From Octopus vulgaris (Eukaryota): a stretch of DNA of 64,000 bases. The DNA is taken from contig OX597820.1 of NCBI GenBank assembly GCA_951406725.2, forward strand, positions 68,076,001-68,140,000. Reading direction: 5' to 3'. A model generated the notes under the pieces. That model saw only the letters and a program-made list of their open reading frames with translations, had not been told where the DNA came from and did not search any database. Both the position numbers and the translations under genes were made by a program. Shown in pieces: positions 20,413 to 64,000 of this stretch (the stretch's first letter is position 1; each line of letters opens with the position of its first letter).

Positions 20413-21208
20413 CTGCATATAGTCTCCCAACCACCGCGTGATAACCGGTGTTTGTTTGTCTACGCCCTGAAATTTAGCGTTTAGGTAAAAAAATAAGTAC
20501 TGGGATTGATTTGTTCATCTAAACACTTCAAGGTGGTGTCCCAGAATGGCCACAGTCCAATCATTTCTACTACAAGCACAAGGAATGGATTTTGTGGGGA
20601 GGGGAACAGTAGTTTACATCGACCCCAATACTCAACCTAATTTATCGACTCCGAGAGGATAAAATGCAAAGTCGACCTCGGCGGAATTTGAACTCACAAG
20701 GTACTGACAGGCAAAATACCGCTAACGATCCTGTCAGCTCGCTGCCTTTAGAATGGCCACGGTCTAATGACAGTAAAATATAGAAGATCTGTTACAAAAT
20801 GATAGCTTATATATTTGGGTGTATCGATTTTACTGTAATTATTTTATTGATCTTTACGTTATTTTTTCTCAATATATTAATAGGTTTGGATGTCACGAGC
20901 CCTGGGATTCATGAGACTGGACCTTAACCCGGTCACTATGGCCTATAATTGATTGAGGTCACACTACTCCCATCTGAATGGAACACCGGTCCCTGGCAAG
21001 GTTAACTTCCCAGCTATTGGTGGAACTCATTTACAAATGGGTGTAATGGGGCAACGTGAAATCAAGTACTTGCTCACGAACACAATGCATCGCCCAGTCT
21101 GGGAATCGAAACCACGACCTGAGTTCAACACCTCTAGCCTTCTTGGTATTTGATAGAGAAAACTAAACACTGATTACTAATTTTCTACGTAGGTCCAATG
21201 AAACAATT

Positions 21209-21775
21209 ATTCTTTTCTACTCTAGGCACAAGGCCCGAACGTTTTGGGGGAGGAGGCTAGTCAATTAGATGGGCCCCAGTACGTAACTGGTACTTAATTT
21301 ATCGACTCCGAAAGGATGAAAGGCAAAGTCAGCCTCGGCGGAATTTGAACTCAGAACGTAAAAATTGGCGAAATACCTATTTCTTTACTACCCACAAGGG
21401 GCTAAACACAGAGAGGACAAACAACGACAGACAAACGGATTAAGTCGATTGCATCGACCCCAGTGAGTAACTGGCAGTTATTTAATCGTCCCCAAAAGGA
21501 TGAAAAGCGAAGTCGACCTCGGCGGAATTTGAACTCAGAACGTAGCGGCAGACGAAATACCTATTTCTATTTCTTTATTACCCACAAAGGGCTAAACACA
21601 GAGGGGACAAACAAGGACAGACAAACGGATTAAGTCGATTACATCGACTCCAGTGAGTAACTGGCAGTTATTTAATCGTCCCCGAAAGGATGAAAGGCGA
21701 AGTCGACCTCGGCGGAATTTGAACTCAGAACGTAGCGGCAGACGAAATACCGCTAAGCATTTTGCTCGGCGTGCT
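21209..21775 (-). mobile_element. Family B SINE trimeric array (tail A, tail A, tail B)
   Basis: Three units of about 180 bp joined at GAAATACCTATTTC. Confidence 0.9.
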
Positions 21776-27460: not shown

Positions 27461-27561
27461 ATTTCCTTGAATTAATGTGTTGACATAAAATACTTATATG
27501 GGTTCAACTGTTATGCAAGTGAACAAATATTGGCTTGTATCATCATATATAAATAGCTAGA

Positions 27562-27948
27562 AGGCGGCGAGCTGGCAGAACCGGGCGAAATGCGTAGCCG
27601 TATTTCGTCTGCCGTTACGTTCTGGGTTCAGATTCCGCCGAGGTCGACTTTGCCTTTCATCCTTTCGGGGTCGATAAATTAAGTACCAGTTACGCACTGG
27701 GGTCGATGTAATCGACTTAATCCGTTTGTCTGTCCTTGTTTGTCCCCTCTGTGTTTAACCCCTTGTGGGTAGTAAAGAAATAGGTATTTCGTCTGCCGCT
27801 ACGTTCTGAGTTCAAATTCCGCCGAGGTCGACCCTGTCTTTCATCCTTTCGGGACCGATAAATTAAGTACCAGTTACATACTGGGGTCGATCTATTCGGT
27901 TGGCCCCCTCCCCAAACGTTTCAGGCCTTGTGCCAAAAGTAGAAAAGT
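27562..27948 (+). mobile_element. Family B SINE dimer (tail A, then tail B)
   Basis: Head GGCGGCGAGCTGGCAGAA, two Nin domains, junction GAAATAGGTATTTC. Confidence 0.9.
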
Positions 27949-28584
27949 ATATAAATAAGGGCTGTTGAACATGGAGATAAGTTTCTAGAATGAATTAATA
28001 GACTCCAGCAAGTCCTTAGACATGAATCCAGGACTTCCTTATATGCACTTTTCTGAGAAAATTAACTAACTGATGTTCCTGCTGATGTCAGTCACATTAA
28101 TCTCACCAATCTGGAGCCCTTCATATGTCATCAACACTACACCTCTCCCGATTGACTTAAAAACAGAACACGCGTCAATATTGCAGTGCTGATGTCATAT
28201 CCAACATAAATCATACATTGATAATATAGTTAGGCGAACTGGAATATTAACAGCTAAGTGTCAATGCGATGAATACAGCACCGGGCTTGTGATATGATGC
28301 TGATATTTTAGCCACTTGTCCCTAATTCTATCTACTTATCCATCTGTGTGTATTACCTCTTATATTCAGCTCTGATAGTGTATTAGCCAACAGTACATTG
28401 TCAGACATTATTTTTATAGCCATAACAGCAAATAACTTGAGTTAGCTTTAAAATGGTTGCTTGAGCTGAAAGAGTTAAGAGCTAAATCTGCTAAAAATCA
28501 TACTCTAAATCCTTTGAATACATTTGATTACATAATTCAAGATAATATGTGTTCAAATACAAAAACAGAATGGGTAGTCTTTTA

Positions 28585-30269: not shown

Positions 30270-31100
30270 TCTTTCTACTATAGGCACAAGACCTGAAATT
30301 TGTGCGGCGAGGATTTGTCGGTTACATCGGCCTCAGTGTTTAACTGCTATTTGATTTATCGACCCCGAAAGGACGAAAGGCAAAGTTGACCTCGGCGGAA
30401 TTTGAACTCAGAACGTAGCAACGGTTGAAGTACCGCTAAGCATATTTCTTAGCGTGCTAACGACTCTGCCACCTAGCCGCCTTAACCTTGCAATGTAATA
30501 TACCTATTTCTTTACTACCTACAAGGAGCTAAACACAGAGGAGACAAACAAGAACAGACACACGGATTAAGTCGATTATATCAACCCCAGTGTGTAATTG
30601 GTATTTAAAAAGGATGAAAGGCAAAGTCGACCTCGGCGGAAATTGAACTCAGAACGTAATGGCAGAAGAAATACCTATTTCTTTATTACCCACAAGGGGC
30701 TAAACATAGAGGGGACAAACAAGGACAGACATAGGTATTAAATCGATTACATCGACCCCAGTGCGTAACTGGTACTTATTTAATAGACCCCGAAAGGATG
30801 AAAGGCAAAGTCGACCTCGGCGGAATTTGAACTCAGAACGTAGCGGCAGACGAAATACCGCTGAGCATTTCGCCTGGCGTGCTAACGTTTCTGCCAGCTC
30901 GCCGCCTTTACCTTTTTGGGGAGGGGATGAATCGATTACATCGGCCTCAGTGTTTAACTGGTATTTAATTTATCGTTCTCGAAAAGATGAAAAGCAAAGT
31001 CGACCACGGCAGAATTTGAACTCAGAACATAAAGACAAACGAAATACCGCTAAGCATTTCGCCCGACATGCTAACGTCTCTGCCAGCTCACCACCTTAAT
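30270..31100 (-). mobile_element. Cluster of four family B SINE units
   Basis: Four Nin domains. TTGCAATGTAATAT is repeated at 30256, 30488 and 31102. Confidence 0.88.
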
Positions 31101-59699: not shown

Positions 59700-62635
59700 G
59701 ATTGATGTAAACTCATAGACATTCTTCACCGTTCTCCACAGGTGCAATATCTAATTTTTATTCCCTTTCTAAGACTAATATAATAGCCGCTGATCTGGGC
59801 TCATAAGGACCGTTGGCTGGGCTCATGCCATATCCTCTGGGCATTCTCGATATCCATCTCTTTTCACATTACCTTTATTGTACCTAACATCTCAGATCTT
59901 GCGCTAACCACTATGCTGTCATTCCACACAGATACTGGTTTGCAATAGTTCAGGAGAGACATTAAATGCTTCATTCTCGCTGCTGGCGAGGGCTTGCGAG
60001 GGCGACAGGCACTGCCTCTTTCTCTAGAACCAATTAGTAAAAAATGTCTCAAATAGGCTTGTATGAGGTACTATCACAACCGACATATGAAACGTCATAT
60101 GAGTGACCTCCCACTTCGACCATGATAACGATGGTATTCTATGGATAGGATTCGTGATCTCTACGGAGTAGTGATAAACAAGCGAGAAAGACAATGACAG
60201 CGAGAACAATATTACAATCAACTCGGAAGCTCGAACGCTGATTTCAGTTGACTAATGCTAGCTTGTTTTCCCATTTAGAGGCTTTTGCTCCGTGAACAGA
60301 CTAAATGGCCACCAATTGTAGGTATTTTGATGCATATATTTGGTCTCTCACGGTCTTAACTTTCCATCTCATGAAGAGAAATGTAGTCTTTGCAGAGAGA
60401 AGAACTATAGAAAATATATCTGACAAACAACAAATATATTTAATCACCGTTCACCAAGAAGCTCTGCGGATATCAAAATGAATACCGAGTCATCCTCAAT
60501 CACGGTTTCTCAAGCCCTCTAAGAATGGGGTGCTGATAATTGATAAAAATTGTGGCTAGCAAAAAACTGACCTTCTTATGAACAAAATAGGAGTCCCTTG
60601 CAATCTGGTCAGACACAATATGGTGAGAGTCACATTCTTATACGATAAAGAGGGGTGTTAGCTGCATACTTTCCGAATAAGATGAGGGTGGCCAGTATCC
60701 GCTTAAGCGGACCACGAAATTGATGTGCTTAGCTTCTTGTTCGTTTCATATCTCCAGCTAGATAGGAAATGACTGAGGTGACAAGAAGTTTGGTTAGTCT
60801 TATCCAGAAATAGCCTGAATGGTGCTATACTGGAAGTGTGGCGAACGTGTACATCATCTTTCTGACTTATTACCACCTGACCGTTGTGTCTTACTCCAGT
60901 TTTGATTTCACCACGTTGGATCAATTGTGATTCTCTTTCTTGAAAAGACACATCCAACTAGTTAGAGTGTTCCTCTACTGCCATCATCTTTTACTCGGAT
61001 TACTTGTGATGCTGTGGTCTACGTCGGCACGTGATGGTGCTGTGACATCTGCAAAAAATTTGATAAGCGTATATATGTGTGGTCGCAGTGTGTCAGAAAT
61101 GGTTTTCCACTGATAGTCATTTTGGATGAGTGTTAGTTCTAGGATTTAATAAACCTTTTAGAAGACACTAATTATGCACTTACAAGAGAGCGCAAGCAGA
61201 TCGACGGGTCCAAATAGCAGAGGTACAGCATATTGTGCACTTCCAAGTAGGTACATGCGATTTTACAGAAGCGTTTTATGGAACTGTTTGCGGTGAAAAG
61301 TGAGATGAAGTCAATAGGAACTTTGATGTCAAGCTGATGGCTTGTCACAAATTTTGGTCGAAGACGCCAATCGCTGAGAATTACCGACTTAGGGGATAAA
61401 ATAACGCACATGTTGAGCAGCAGTAAAATCTGCAAATCGCCTGAGCAGAGAATTCACCTCATACAACCCGTACATATATTTAGAAAATGAAACCGATAAT
61501 ATACAAAGCAGAGAAATGAAAGTAAAGAGTAGGAAATGGTATTACAGAAGAGTCAAGTTATATTCTTTTCTTCTCTATGCACAAGGCCCGAAATTTTGGG
61601 GGGAGGAGCCAGTCGATTAGATCGGCCTCAGTATGCAACTAGTACTTAATTTATCGATCCCGGAAGGATGAAAGGCAAAGTCGACCTCGGCGGAATTTGA
61701 ACTCAGAACGTAGCAGCAGACGAAATACCGCAAAGCATTTCGCCTGGCGTGCTAACGTTTCTGCCAGCTGACCACCTTAAGAGTCAAGTTATATTAAAAG
61801 TAGAATATAAAAAAGCTAAATCGCCTGATCTGGATGATCAACTCTGCAAACTTTATCATAACATCAGATTTGCCCTGTGCCTGCTGGAATTATAGAAATT
61901 AGCAGCTTGGGTGAACAGATGAAGGTGACGTTGTTAGGGAAGGCTCGGAGCAAGGGAGACATGGCAGACAACTAGTCCCGTAACTCTGTAACACATTTCG
62001 ATGAAGTGATGCCAAAAGTTGGTGCTTGACTTTGGTAGTATAGTCTAAAGCGCGCAAATGTGTGAGATGTCTATTAGACCTTTTCCTTACAACATCCACT
62101 TAATGGATTGGGACAGACTTGGCTTCGGTGAGGTTCTGTTTAGTTTAGATCAGTAGAAACTTAATATTTAATGTAAGCGTCTACATTTACTATGATATTT
62201 TGTAGATGAATGTAGTTATTATACTGTGGCCTTGCGCAACTAGTCTCAAAATTTCTGCTATTTGGCTTTAGTTCAGAGATTTTGAGCCAACATTTGCTTT
62301 TATTCTCTGACTTACAAGATATTGGTCCTTGAGTGGTTTTCTCTACATGTTTTTTTCAATATATTTGCGAAAACACGTCCAGTTGTTTTGGGTTTATCTA
62401 AATCTGTCGTTTCAACACATATGACGCACGTTTCATGTTCCTTATACTTAGCGGCTTTGCTACATTCTTAGTATTTCTCAAGACCTGCTGTTGCTGTTTT
62501 GTATTCATTTTGTATTCGTATCAGAGACCTTGTGTGTGAGGTAGGTATATTCTAACTACATCAGCTTTGGCATGGTAGCTTCCGAAGTCTATGAGAAGTA
62601 TTTTTCCAATGTCTAAATATCTCAACTCCCTTCAA
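59700..62635 (-). mobile_element. Highly degenerate RTE-like LINE remnant interrupted by later insertions
   Basis: Scattered, correctly ordered RT-like traces on the - strand: a KG.R..NYR-like segment near 62070, a split GFRSGR/DQIF-like region near 61830/61430, EIKTGVR near 60900, and a W..H-like segment near 60110. Boundaries are approximate. Confidence 0.45.
61565..61778 (-). mobile_element. Family B SINE, tail B monomer with 17-bp TSD
   Basis: AAGAGTCAAGTTATATT at 61548-61564 and 61779-61795. Confidence 0.9.
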
Positions 62636-62656
62636 ATCAGGTTTCCAGCTAAATAC

Positions 62657-62869
62657 TGGGTTGTCCGGAAAGTTCGTGTTGATTTTTAAAGGAAAGAAAA
62701 TGGTCAATAAATACTTGCCATTACATTTTTAATCAACCAAATATGAACCATTTTGTTGCACAATGCGTCTCCATCTTTCCTTTAACTTGAGAATACCCTC
62801 TTCCCAGAATTGAGGTGGTTTCATGGCAAAGAATTCATCAAGGTATCTTTTTACGTCATCCAAGGAATT
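62657..62869 (-). mobile_element. Mariner end fragment (same family as 1660-2227)
   Basis: TGGGTTGTCCGGAAAGTTCGTG...CATCCAAGGAATT aligns to 1660-1864. Only one TIR is present. Confidence 0.88.
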
Positions 62870-62977
62870 ACAGCTTCACTGAGTTGAAGCTGTAATAACT
62901 AATTGCAAAAAAACGAGCGTATTAACAAATATCTTCTTTCTAACATTATATCCTGCTTTTAATGTAACTTCACACTT

Positions 62978-63540
62978 AAGGCGGCGAGCTGGCAGAAACG
63001 TTAGCACGCCGGGCGAAATGCTTATCGGTATTTCGTCTGCCGTTACGTTCTGAGATCAAATTCCGCCGAGGTCGACTTTGCCTTTCATCCTTTCGGGGTC
63101 CATTAAATAAGTACCAGTTGCGCACTGGAATCGATGTAATCGACTTAATCCGTTTGTCTGTCCTTGTTTGTCCTCTCTGTGTTTAGCCCCTTGTAGGTAG
63201 TAAAGAAATAGGTATTTCGTCTGTCTTAACGTTCTGAGTTCAAGTTCCGCCGAGGTCGACTTTGCCTTTCATCCTTACGGGGTCGATTAAATAAGTAACA
63301 GTTACGCACTGGGGTCGATATAATCGACTTAATCCGTTTGTCTGTCCTTGTTTGTACTCTCTGTGTTTAGTCCCTTGTGGGTAGTAAATAAATAGGTATT
63401 TCGTCTGACTTAACGTTCTGAGTTCAAATTCCGCCGAGGCTGACTTTGCCTTTCATCCTTACAGGGTCGATAAATTAAGTACCATTTGCGTGCTGGCTCT
63501 TCCCCCAAAATTTCGGGCCTTGTGCCTAGAGTAGAAAAGA
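62978..63540 (+). mobile_element. Family B SINE trimeric array (tail A, tail A, tail B)
   Basis: Full head, three Nin domains, junctions (G/T)AAATAGGTATTTC. Confidence 0.9.
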
Positions 63541-64000
63541 ATATAACTTGACTATTGTGTAGTACCCTTTCCTTATCTTTGCCTCCATTTTTCTGTTTTG
63601 TACATTATCGGTTTCTTTTTCTAAATATACGGGTTGTATGAGGTGAATTCTCTGATTTCAGTATTTATGTTTAGTTTCACACACCTAGTTCTAGTACATC
63701 AATTATTGCATATAAAAGCTTTAGCGTTCATAGAAACTCCTCTAATTCCATATCCATTCTTATGTCTTGGCTAAACCTATGTACTATTTTTATCAGGTTT
63801 CCAGCTAAATATTATTTCTCGTAAATATTTTCAAACCATTCGTCGTTTATAGTTCCACTGTAGCATCATCTGTTCCTCATTGTTATTTCATTCAACGTGC
63901 TTGTTAATGGCGTCAGTACAAGGCAAAAGATTTTGGGGTGGATATAGAAACCCCTTGAAAAATTCTTCTGCTTATAGATATTGGGCTGATTCTGTCTCTT

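Follow-up and report, generated by a model that had tools for sequence, protein, structure and literature searches.

A SINE ending in tail-B occupies one insertion scar in a decayed LINE and was copied in inverted orientation to a nearby site; the original, copy 2, later probably gained two younger tail-A units in place. The locus lies in Octopus vulgaris contig OX597820.1, near the end of the window (the whole stretch of 64,000 nucleotides that was analysed). Weighing the accounts set out below, we judge gain to be the probable course of events and loss of units a doubtful one. A first-pass annotation of the sequence had proposed that unit number alters in place after insertion, and this is supported: one scar carries different unit numbers and signs of in-place growth are found throughout the family. 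It left three mechanisms open (insertion of the SINE into its own head, gene conversion and recombinational loss); the data point to two steps, a young unit entering at the head/body junction and then unequal exchange, with a collapse in copy 1 the less likely course.

The inverted duplication and its SINE

The duplication had been described as 61446-61810 repeated in inverted orientation at 62946-63654, and three pairs of inverted arms bear this out: 61611-61810 with 62946-63145 (87% identity), 61475-61605 with 63499-63629 (88%) and 61446-61478 with 63622-63654 (94%). The SINE is read on the minus strand in copy 1 and on the plus strand in copy 2, and the flanks of the two paralogs are ~12% different. 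The duplication is not an assembly artefact, because contigs of other runs (X2, X4) span copy 1's outer junctions on either side as well as copy 2's 3' junction; the 12% divergence and the junction-spanning contigs (X2, X4, X16, X17) together rule this origin out. The short-read contigs of these runs end within the SINE, and the check covers the duplication, not the number of units.

Copy 1 is built of a head, a body and tail-B, and copy 2 of a head, two successive bodies each with tail-A, and a last body with tail-B. As annotated, a tail-B monomer faces a trimer with two tail-A units in register: the extra 368 bp of copy 2 sit at GGTATTTCG. The SINE target duplication AAGAGTCAAGTTATATT is identical at 17 of 17 positions on the two sides of copy 1, and its versions in copy 2 carry 1 (tail side) and 3 (head side) mismatches; elsewhere SINE target duplications vary between elements. 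The two window copies are closest to each other (86%) and share small deletions against the LINE family. One SINE insertion behind both copies, as first proposed, is therefore the best reading of the sequence, the element being present twice at one scar because a 373-base piece was copied, inverted, 1.1 kb away.

The flanks, originally taken as unique, proved to be decayed LINE. In a genome search, 61444-61565 matched 20 other loci at 72-82%, all of an old non-LTR retrotransposon family; relatives carry reverse transcriptase-like frames, the Pfam RVT_1 match (E=0.044) being below the cut-off. Copy 2 lies within a continuous LINE remnant running from about 62166 to past 64000. In contrast, the copy 1 fragment is bounded by an 11-bp direct repeat and is missing from all 4 runs examined from two related organisms, C and F, whose contigs hold a single copy of the 11-bp target and join 61433 straight to 61818. 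Its template, 62946-63654, was the sole match above 82% in the genome search. The two copies are thus not equivalent: copy 2 is the source, and copy 1 was inserted late and in inverted orientation, an event that can be dated, that left an 11-bp target duplication of its own and that the first-pass annotation had missed (Table 1).

A look-alike of the copy 1 filler lies at 63711-63721, the sole ATAAAAGCT within the window. A Penelope element considered as host of copy 1 stayed unconfirmed, three genome searches giving only its own locus or one weak match. Further left, 60717-61151 matches five loci at 60-65%, to which no family name is attached.

Table 1. Features of the duplicated SINE locus (window coordinates).
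Feature	Position	Strand	Remark
11-bp target duplication flanking copy 1, left side	61434..61444	+	exact repeat of 61818-61828
Copy 1, an insert of 373 bp copied in reverse from 62946-63654 and carrying a monomer SINE	61445..61817	+
7-base filler at the right end of copy 1, absent from the source	61811-61817
Decayed LINE sequence forming the long flank of copy 1	61446..61547	+	identity 72-82% with 20 loci of the family and 86% with copy 2
SINE target duplication, tail side, copy 1	61548..61564	+	identical to 61779-61795
SINE monomer with head, tail-B and a body that is C-type at 13/15 and B-type in its 3' part	61561..61778	-
SINE target duplication, head side, copy 1	61779..61795	+
11-bp target duplication flanking copy 1, right side	61818..61828	+
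Decayed non-LTR retrotransposon hosting copy 2	62166..64000 (to about 64126, past the window)	-	colinear pieces match family loci at 57-68% (DNA)
SINE target duplication, head side, copy 2	62961..62977	+	3 mismatches against copy 1
Copy 2 unit 1: head, C-type body, tail-A	62978..63210	+	4/170 non-CpG and 1/35 CpG changes
Copy 2 unit 2: mosaic body and tail-A	63211..63394	+	5' part T-type, A17 and A66 as in unit 3; 3' part A-type
Third unit of copy 2: tail-B behind a T-type body that has a 20-base deletion	63395..63544	+	loose ends place the 3' end of the family at 63544
SINE target duplication, tail side, copy 2	63541..63557	+	overlaps the end of the tail
Long flank of copy 2, up to the duplication breakpoint	63558..63654	+

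Ages of the units at the locus and across the family

The flanks and target duplications of the two paralogs differ at 17 of 145 sites, or 5.9% per lineage (95% range 3.4-9.4%), and the window branch carries 26 changes in 532 bases (3.2-7.2%) since its node with C and F. The first unit of copy 2 is only 2.4% from consensus. Comparing tail-A units with their flanks had been proposed as a check on the direction of change, and its outcome favours gain: in the copy 2 lineage 11 of 132 flank and target-duplication bases have changed, against 4 of 170 unmasked non-CpG positions in unit 1 (p=0.03), family-polymorphic sites having been masked prior to counting, which can conceal real changes. CpG changes number 8/54 in the old parts and 1/58 in the head and inner units of copy 2 (p=0.014). 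Tail-A activity has its median at about 3.75%, and an age of 5% or older is estimated for only 15% of first units. On age only, an origin of unit 1 after the duplication is roughly favoured by 9-37 to 1 over in-place gain before it and by 6-26 to 1 over insertion as a whole chimera (eight parameter sets), odds that depend on Poisson clocks and on our own priors.

Across the genome the trimer form is common, with 26,764 exact copies of its junction, and a blind sample of 464 kb held 86 clusters of this short, dispersed, high-copy SINE. Box-like (A, B) motifs can be made out in the head by eye against a consensus; ARAGORN found no tRNA in the SINE and Rfam gave no match at the gathering score. 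Only the first unit of an array has a full head, the others being 5'-truncated at a fixed point, and tail-A and tail-B are separate modules, the inner tails not being truncated forms of the final one. Among 20 unselected junctions, 14 were exactly in register, 2 had a 6-base repeat and 4 had deletions. Of 49 hybrid elements, 34 are each enclosed in a single target duplication, where 0.8 would be expected. Arrays of at least 11 units occur elsewhere (L042, L048); the focal locus has 3. Before hybrids were counted for target duplications, body divergence and changes common to terminal units, loci that overlapped as duplicates were removed together with the focal copies.

The two-age structure recurs in the family. 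In 22 hybrids picked by their junction, inner tail-A bodies were about half as diverged from consensus as the terminal tail-B body (95/2913, 3.3%, vs 104/1624, 6.4%), the terminal body being the higher in 17 of the 22 (p=0.002). Pure tail-A arrays (n=27) showed no such age gradient, divergence being no higher in the last body (49/2002 vs 109/3664). The gap was gone in 28 hybrids chosen for a low-divergence terminal unit (3.3% vs 3.5%, p=0.20), as expected, because these were picked on that very value. A further 29 hybrid loci, all with a deletion in the last body, served for the target-duplication test, the sharing count and part of the first-unit age prior and were left out of the inner-versus-terminal comparison. 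Mismatch between target duplications followed terminal divergence in a first test (rho 0.41, p=0.01, n=39), and on replication rho was 0.17-0.24 (p=0.09-0.25, n=47-51), with 8-11% mismatch in all classes.

Among 77 terminal units, no pair had three or more changes in common out of a mean of 5.6; these changes are private, so the units do not descend from a few masters. A trimer master had first been suggested by the target duplications of dispersed trimers, and it was dropped because in-place gain retains the old duplication and terminal changes are private. Rare 5' states are common to the last two bodies in 15 of 40 arrays of at least three units and in 2 of 57 dimers (p=2e-5), counts that include copy 2 itself, where units 2 and 3 have A17 and A66 in common, a pair present in 1 of 722 other bodies. 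Such sharing may be read as a mark of in-place expansion. Unit 2 is not a plain duplicate of unit 1, because their 3' parts differ at several family-polymorphic sites.

Gain in place and its alternatives

Gain in place can be laid out as five steps. The SINE inserted with a 17-bp target duplication, which is observed directly. A 373-bp piece around it was then copied in reverse into a site 1.1 kb off; this insertion is also observed, and the closeness and inversion of the source, together with the 7-base filler, suggest local DNA-templated repair of a staggered break. The copy would have been made soon after the SINE insertion, at about 5-6% divergence per lineage and before most tail-A activity. 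A young tail-A element may then have entered the old element at the head/body junction, its 5' end being resolved by homology such that the old head was replaced. Of 62 pure tail-A elements, 18 run on with at least four letters of GGTATT, the letters of the junction; with templates extending this far, reverse transcription could prime there. Lastly, an out-of-register exchange between bodies would have added the middle unit, whose 5' part would be a copy of the terminal body.

Several points tell against gain. The first is the body of copy 1, which is C-type at positions 13/15 as in unit 1 and further on B-type as in unit 3, the very pattern that a collapse would give. The T-type body of unit 3 means that copy 1 is more than its unaltered ancestor; among unselected tail-B monomers C-type is a minority (6/41, with T-type 15), and gain calls for one additional, putative short gene conversion in either lineage. 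Second, the heads of hybrids look young, which insertion of a whole chimera explains more simply. Third, the target-duplication age test was weaker on replication. In addition, the SINEs of the two paralogs have no rare change in common, and the 3' part of unit 2 departs from that of unit 1.

Loss takes up the first of these points: a dimer or trimer formed in place would already have existed when copied, and copy 1 would have collapsed through 119 bp of body homology, the crossover falling within about body positions 16 to 77 and a template slip while copying being one conceivable cause; growth of copy 2 from dimer to trimer may still be later. Deletions between closely spaced direct repeats are common, the unit 1/unit 3 mosaic fits, and head plus 5' body of the two copies total about 10% difference, near the flank value. 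Unit 1 could then be no younger than the duplication, yet it shows few changes (4/170, CpG 1/35), an age of 5% or more is rare among first units, and the age odds given above run against it, which leaves this account unlikely.

Alternatively, the chimera was inserted whole and copy 1 collapsed afterwards: reverse transcription on an old tail-B transcript would have stalled at the junction hairpin and jumped to tail-A RNA. Heads and first bodies of hybrids are of tail-A type throughout; a GC head variant occurs in 15/64 hybrids, 15/70 pure tail-A elements and 0/35 tail-B monomers. Many 5'-truncated copies begin at or near the hairpin (36 of 91 headless elements in body positions 1-9), and the old, unshared terminal changes would fit many old source copies. 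A search for a LINE tail common to the regions upstream of 20 headless elements found none, the matches being other SINE pieces. We nevertheless consider this route improbable. It predicts old-source changes in the 3' body and tail of both paralogs, of which none is clear; the age odds again run against it; the target-duplication likelihood, poorly calibrated, favours the age of the terminal unit by 4.7-6.6 log units; and L060, a SINE inserted exactly at an older SINE's junction with a 19-bp duplication, is a real in-place insertion.

Independent insertions, a monomer into one LINE copy and a trimer into another at the identical base, would suit a flank that is itself a repeat and the lack of any rare change common to the SINEs of copy 1 and copy 2, but are very improbable: 0 of 18 aligned family copies carry a SINE at the site, the 17-bp target duplication is the same in both elements, and the entire copy 1, SINE included, is missing from C and F. 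That copy 1 is a retrocopy of LINE-sense RNA, its inner units lost by template slip or splicing, is hardly credible: an ATTAAA precedes the right breakpoint by 13 bases, an A-rich run closes the insert and the 11-bp target duplication would suit a retrocopy, but the A-run is 6 A followed by GCT, retrocopies land genome-wide and not 1.1 kb from their source, the filler has its look-alike at 63711-63721, and no convincing in-register splice sites were found by eye.

Returning to gain, a broader picture can be put forward tentatively, on odds somewhat below even: a younger SINE subfamily would home, via its RNA, into the junction of an older one, swap the head seamlessly and seed arrays at many thousands of loci, copy 1 representing the state before and copy 2 the state after.

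Comparison with known systems

Templated sequence insertions are short copies of other genomic DNA with a target duplication and filler at one junction. Copy 1 resembles them in its target duplication, filler, identifiable template and empty site in relatives, and departs from them in having its source 1.1 kb away and inverted and in having no clear poly-A tail.

The origin of tandem arrays from SINEs is usually argued from array structure alone. A one-scar paralog pair, combined with an empty-site outgroup and two unit ages, gives direction and timing to array growth and makes in-place gain directly testable. It follows from this locus that a common target duplication is no proof of a stable SINE locus and that hybrid elements dated by their distance from consensus can be off twofold. 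The locus would be a dated example of dispersed repeats becoming tandem arrays; no host function is implied.

A literature search, centred on the main texts of freely accessible papers, returned none on this octopus array or on such a paralog pair. The octopus tRNA-derived SINEs OK, OR1 and OR2 (Ohshima and Okada 1994, as cited in PMC4758252 and PMC4824008) are, by their description in these citing papers, likewise abundant and tRNA-like in the head. Alu insertion into Alu at a single-nucleotide hotspot (PMC2836564) shows the same preference of a SINE for one base within older copies of itself; in the passages on that hotspot these are ordinary nested insertions, whereas the usual product here is in register and has no second head. 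The squamate SINE-derived satellites (sSat, PMC10702118) also consist of tandem units of part of a SINE, with extended terminal units, varying unit number and a both-ends variant, and between two rattlesnakes 74% of orthologous loci have the same unit number and 14% are off by one. As that study presents them in its text, both-ends arrays are uncommon and the direction of change in unit number is not settled; here such arrays are common and of two ages. Closest are the TSD1-(SINE)n-TSD1 arrays of Scapharca broughtonii (PMC11481361), with a full head in the first unit, middle units headless at one fixed position, a final tail on the last and one target duplication. Their inner tails are described as truncated versions of the same tail, and the passages on these arrays give neither ages nor a paralog or orthologue pair; here the inner tails are a different, younger tail, and ages and a paralog pair are both present. 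Altogether, similar arrays have already been published for clams and reptiles, and what is new is the dated paralog pair and the two-age structure.

The inverted duplication and its date

Two paralogous copies of one SINE insertion lie at this locus, and the inverted duplication, the common 17-bp SINE target duplication and the contrast of monomer with trimer reported by the first-pass annotation are each present in the sequence where it had placed them. In SINE sense, copy 1 reads head, body, tail-B (HBb) and copy 2 reads head, body, tail-A, body, tail-A, body, tail-B (HBaBaBb), tail-A and tail-B being separate tail modules; every later body of copy 2 begins at GGTATTTCG.

Features of the locus and related elements, in window coordinates
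Feature	Position	Remark
Copy 1	61445-61817	373-bp insert, SINE sense minus
Target duplication of copy 1	61434-61444 / 61818-61828	
Deletion in copy 1 flank	61477-61489	13 bp, in runs X4 and X16
Copy 2	62946-63654	SINE sense plus
Copy 2 unit 1	62978-63210	
Copy 2 unit 2	63211-63394	
Copy 2 unit 3	63395-63544	
Predicted hairpin	63010-63039	
Colinear retrotransposon remnant	about 62166-64126	
Perfect direct repeat	62636-62655 / 63792-63811	20 bp
Truncated terminal-inverted-repeat element	62657-62869	left 213 bases; 93% to 1660-1864
Complete copy of that element	about 1660-2203	TA-flanked
Same SINE, trimer	21208-21775	
Same SINE, dimer	27561-27954	
Same SINE, nested multimer	30272-31099	

Copy 1 was inserted late. 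It is bounded by a direct repeat of 11 bp, and its site is empty in 4/4 runs of the related organisms C (about 7% divergent from the window) and F (about 10%), where a single contig joins the left side, reaching 61433 in C and 61423 in F, straight to 61818. The left junction is crossed in runs of organisms A, B and D, and the right one in A, B, D and E. The source of copy 1 lies 1.1 kb off, inverted, and a 7-base filler at one end of the copy has a look-alike near the other breakpoint of this source. We infer that copy 1 arose when a staggered break was repaired locally from a DNA template; retrocopying is an unlikely origin, as no retrocopy would be expected so near its source.

The flanks had been described as unique, but a genome search matched the long flank to 20 further loci at 72-82%, which have in common a 1-2 kb stretch derived from an old non-LTR retrotransposon. 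This family, presumably Dong/R4-like, gives a weak Pfam match (RVT_1, E=0.044). A SINE is found at this site in none of the 18 aligned family copies (0/18), relative to which the two window copies have deletions in common. Because copy 2 sits within a colinear remnant of the retrotransposon, it is the source of the duplication. The left copy of the 20-bp repeat adjoins the end of the truncated terminal-inverted-repeat element and resembles filler copied from 1.1 kb away, possibly a second local templated event. This element, which we take to be mariner-like, is cut off inside the LINE remnant, and its other copies extend beyond the position equivalent to 62869. Three other loci (L014, L015 and L016) are 97-99% identical over 2-3 kb, two of them ~290 kb apart on one contig, and are either recent segmental duplicates or assembly redundancy.

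Across the paralog flanks and target duplications, 17/145 sites differ (5.9% per lineage, 3.4-9.4%), and the window branch since the node with organisms C and F carries 26 changes in 532 bases (4.9%, 3.2-7.2%). Together, these divergences indicate a duplication dating near 5%. At 60902-61433, 26 of the 37 listed differences to organism C are also present in organism F; the branches leading to the window, C and F are thus of uneven length.

SINE arrays of two ages

The exact tail-A/body junction occurs 26,764 times in the genome. In 22 hybrids (tail-A units ending in a tail-B terminal unit) picked by this junction only, with divergence counted at homologous, non-CpG, non-polymorphic sites, inner bodies are 3.3% from consensus vs 6.4% for terminal bodies (p=0.002), a gap between inner and last bodies that was absent in 27 pure tail-A arrays. 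Unselected monomers stand at 3.6% for tail-A (n=14) and 8.4% for tail-B (n=13), and hybrids selected for a low-divergence terminal unit (n=28) at 3.3% inner and 3.5% terminal. A single target duplication encloses 34/49 hybrids, and terminal-unit changes are private across 77 terminal units. Altogether, the age gap, the single target duplications and the private changes indicate that hybrids are young tail-A units joined to old tail-B ends many independent times. At two loci (L042 and L048), the unit of body plus tail-A is repeated at least 11 times in an array. PMC13282606 describes a SINE and LINE expansion in Octopus vulgaris at a Jukes-Cantor distance of 0.065, a figure near the terminal-unit age here.

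Direction and mode of array growth

Comparing tail-A unit with flank divergence, as the first-pass annotation had proposed, did separate the two: in copy 2 unit 1, 4 of 170 unmasked non-CpG bases are changed (CpG bases, 1 of 35), vs 11 of 132 in flank and target duplications on the same lineage (p=0.03). CpG changes number 8/54 in copy 1 plus unit 3 vs 1/58 in the copy 2 head plus inner units (p=0.014), and were not significantly different when heads were compared directly (5/27 vs 1/27, p=0.19). Under Poisson models with empirical age priors, the odds are 6-37 to 1 that unit 1 arrived after the duplication. Units 2 and 3 have two rare states in common, found together in 1/722 other bodies; such sharing is a mark of in-place expansion in this family.

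Gain is the likely direction at the locus, and we consider it rather probable that copy 2 grew after the duplication. Loss, by which copy 1 collapsed from a dimer or trimer, is doubtful even with its two routes taken together; it directly explains why the copy 1 body is C-type at body positions 13/15, like unit 1, unit 3 being T-type, but the age odds speak against it. Both weightings use rough subjective priors and allow for model error. Under gain, the C-type body of copy 1 would require one added short conversion.

Growth itself would proceed in two steps. Dimers have no excess of rare states common to first and last body (3 observed vs 2.8 expected), whereas arrays of at least three units have 23 vs 2.0 expected, all within the 5' two thirds; such states occur in 15/40 of these arrays vs 2/57 dimers. 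Later units would thus come from out-of-register exchange inside the array. The first unit would enter at the junction or within about 13 bases of it, since terminal bodies retain the tail-B type there. Terminal bodies are T-type in 13/25 cases vs 15/41 in monomers, and run-on into GGTATT is seen in 18/62 tail-A elements. At locus L060 (1290-1782), a tail-B SINE interrupts an older SINE exactly at the junction base, accompanied by a 19-bp duplication and with the old head retained; in L198 and L083, a second head lies at roughly this offset. A hairpin (13 bp with G-U pairs) is predicted to form from head end and body start, and the junction base directly follows its loop, at the loop edge. The first step may have taken place in the chromosome or, ahead of insertion, through a template jump: the target-duplication clock favoured in-place entry at first, but only weakly on replication, and hybrid heads, young in type, argue against it.

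Comparison with known arrays

Literature searches of article texts found no published account of this array. The value of the locus lies in a dated before-and-after pair together with the two-age structure of the arrays. In the accounts consulted, Alu has a self-insertion hotspot (PMC2836564), and SINE-derived satellites of snakes differ in unit number between orthologues (PMC10702118). The blood clam has one-head arrays within a single target duplication (PMC11481361), an arrangement like that of the octopus arrays.
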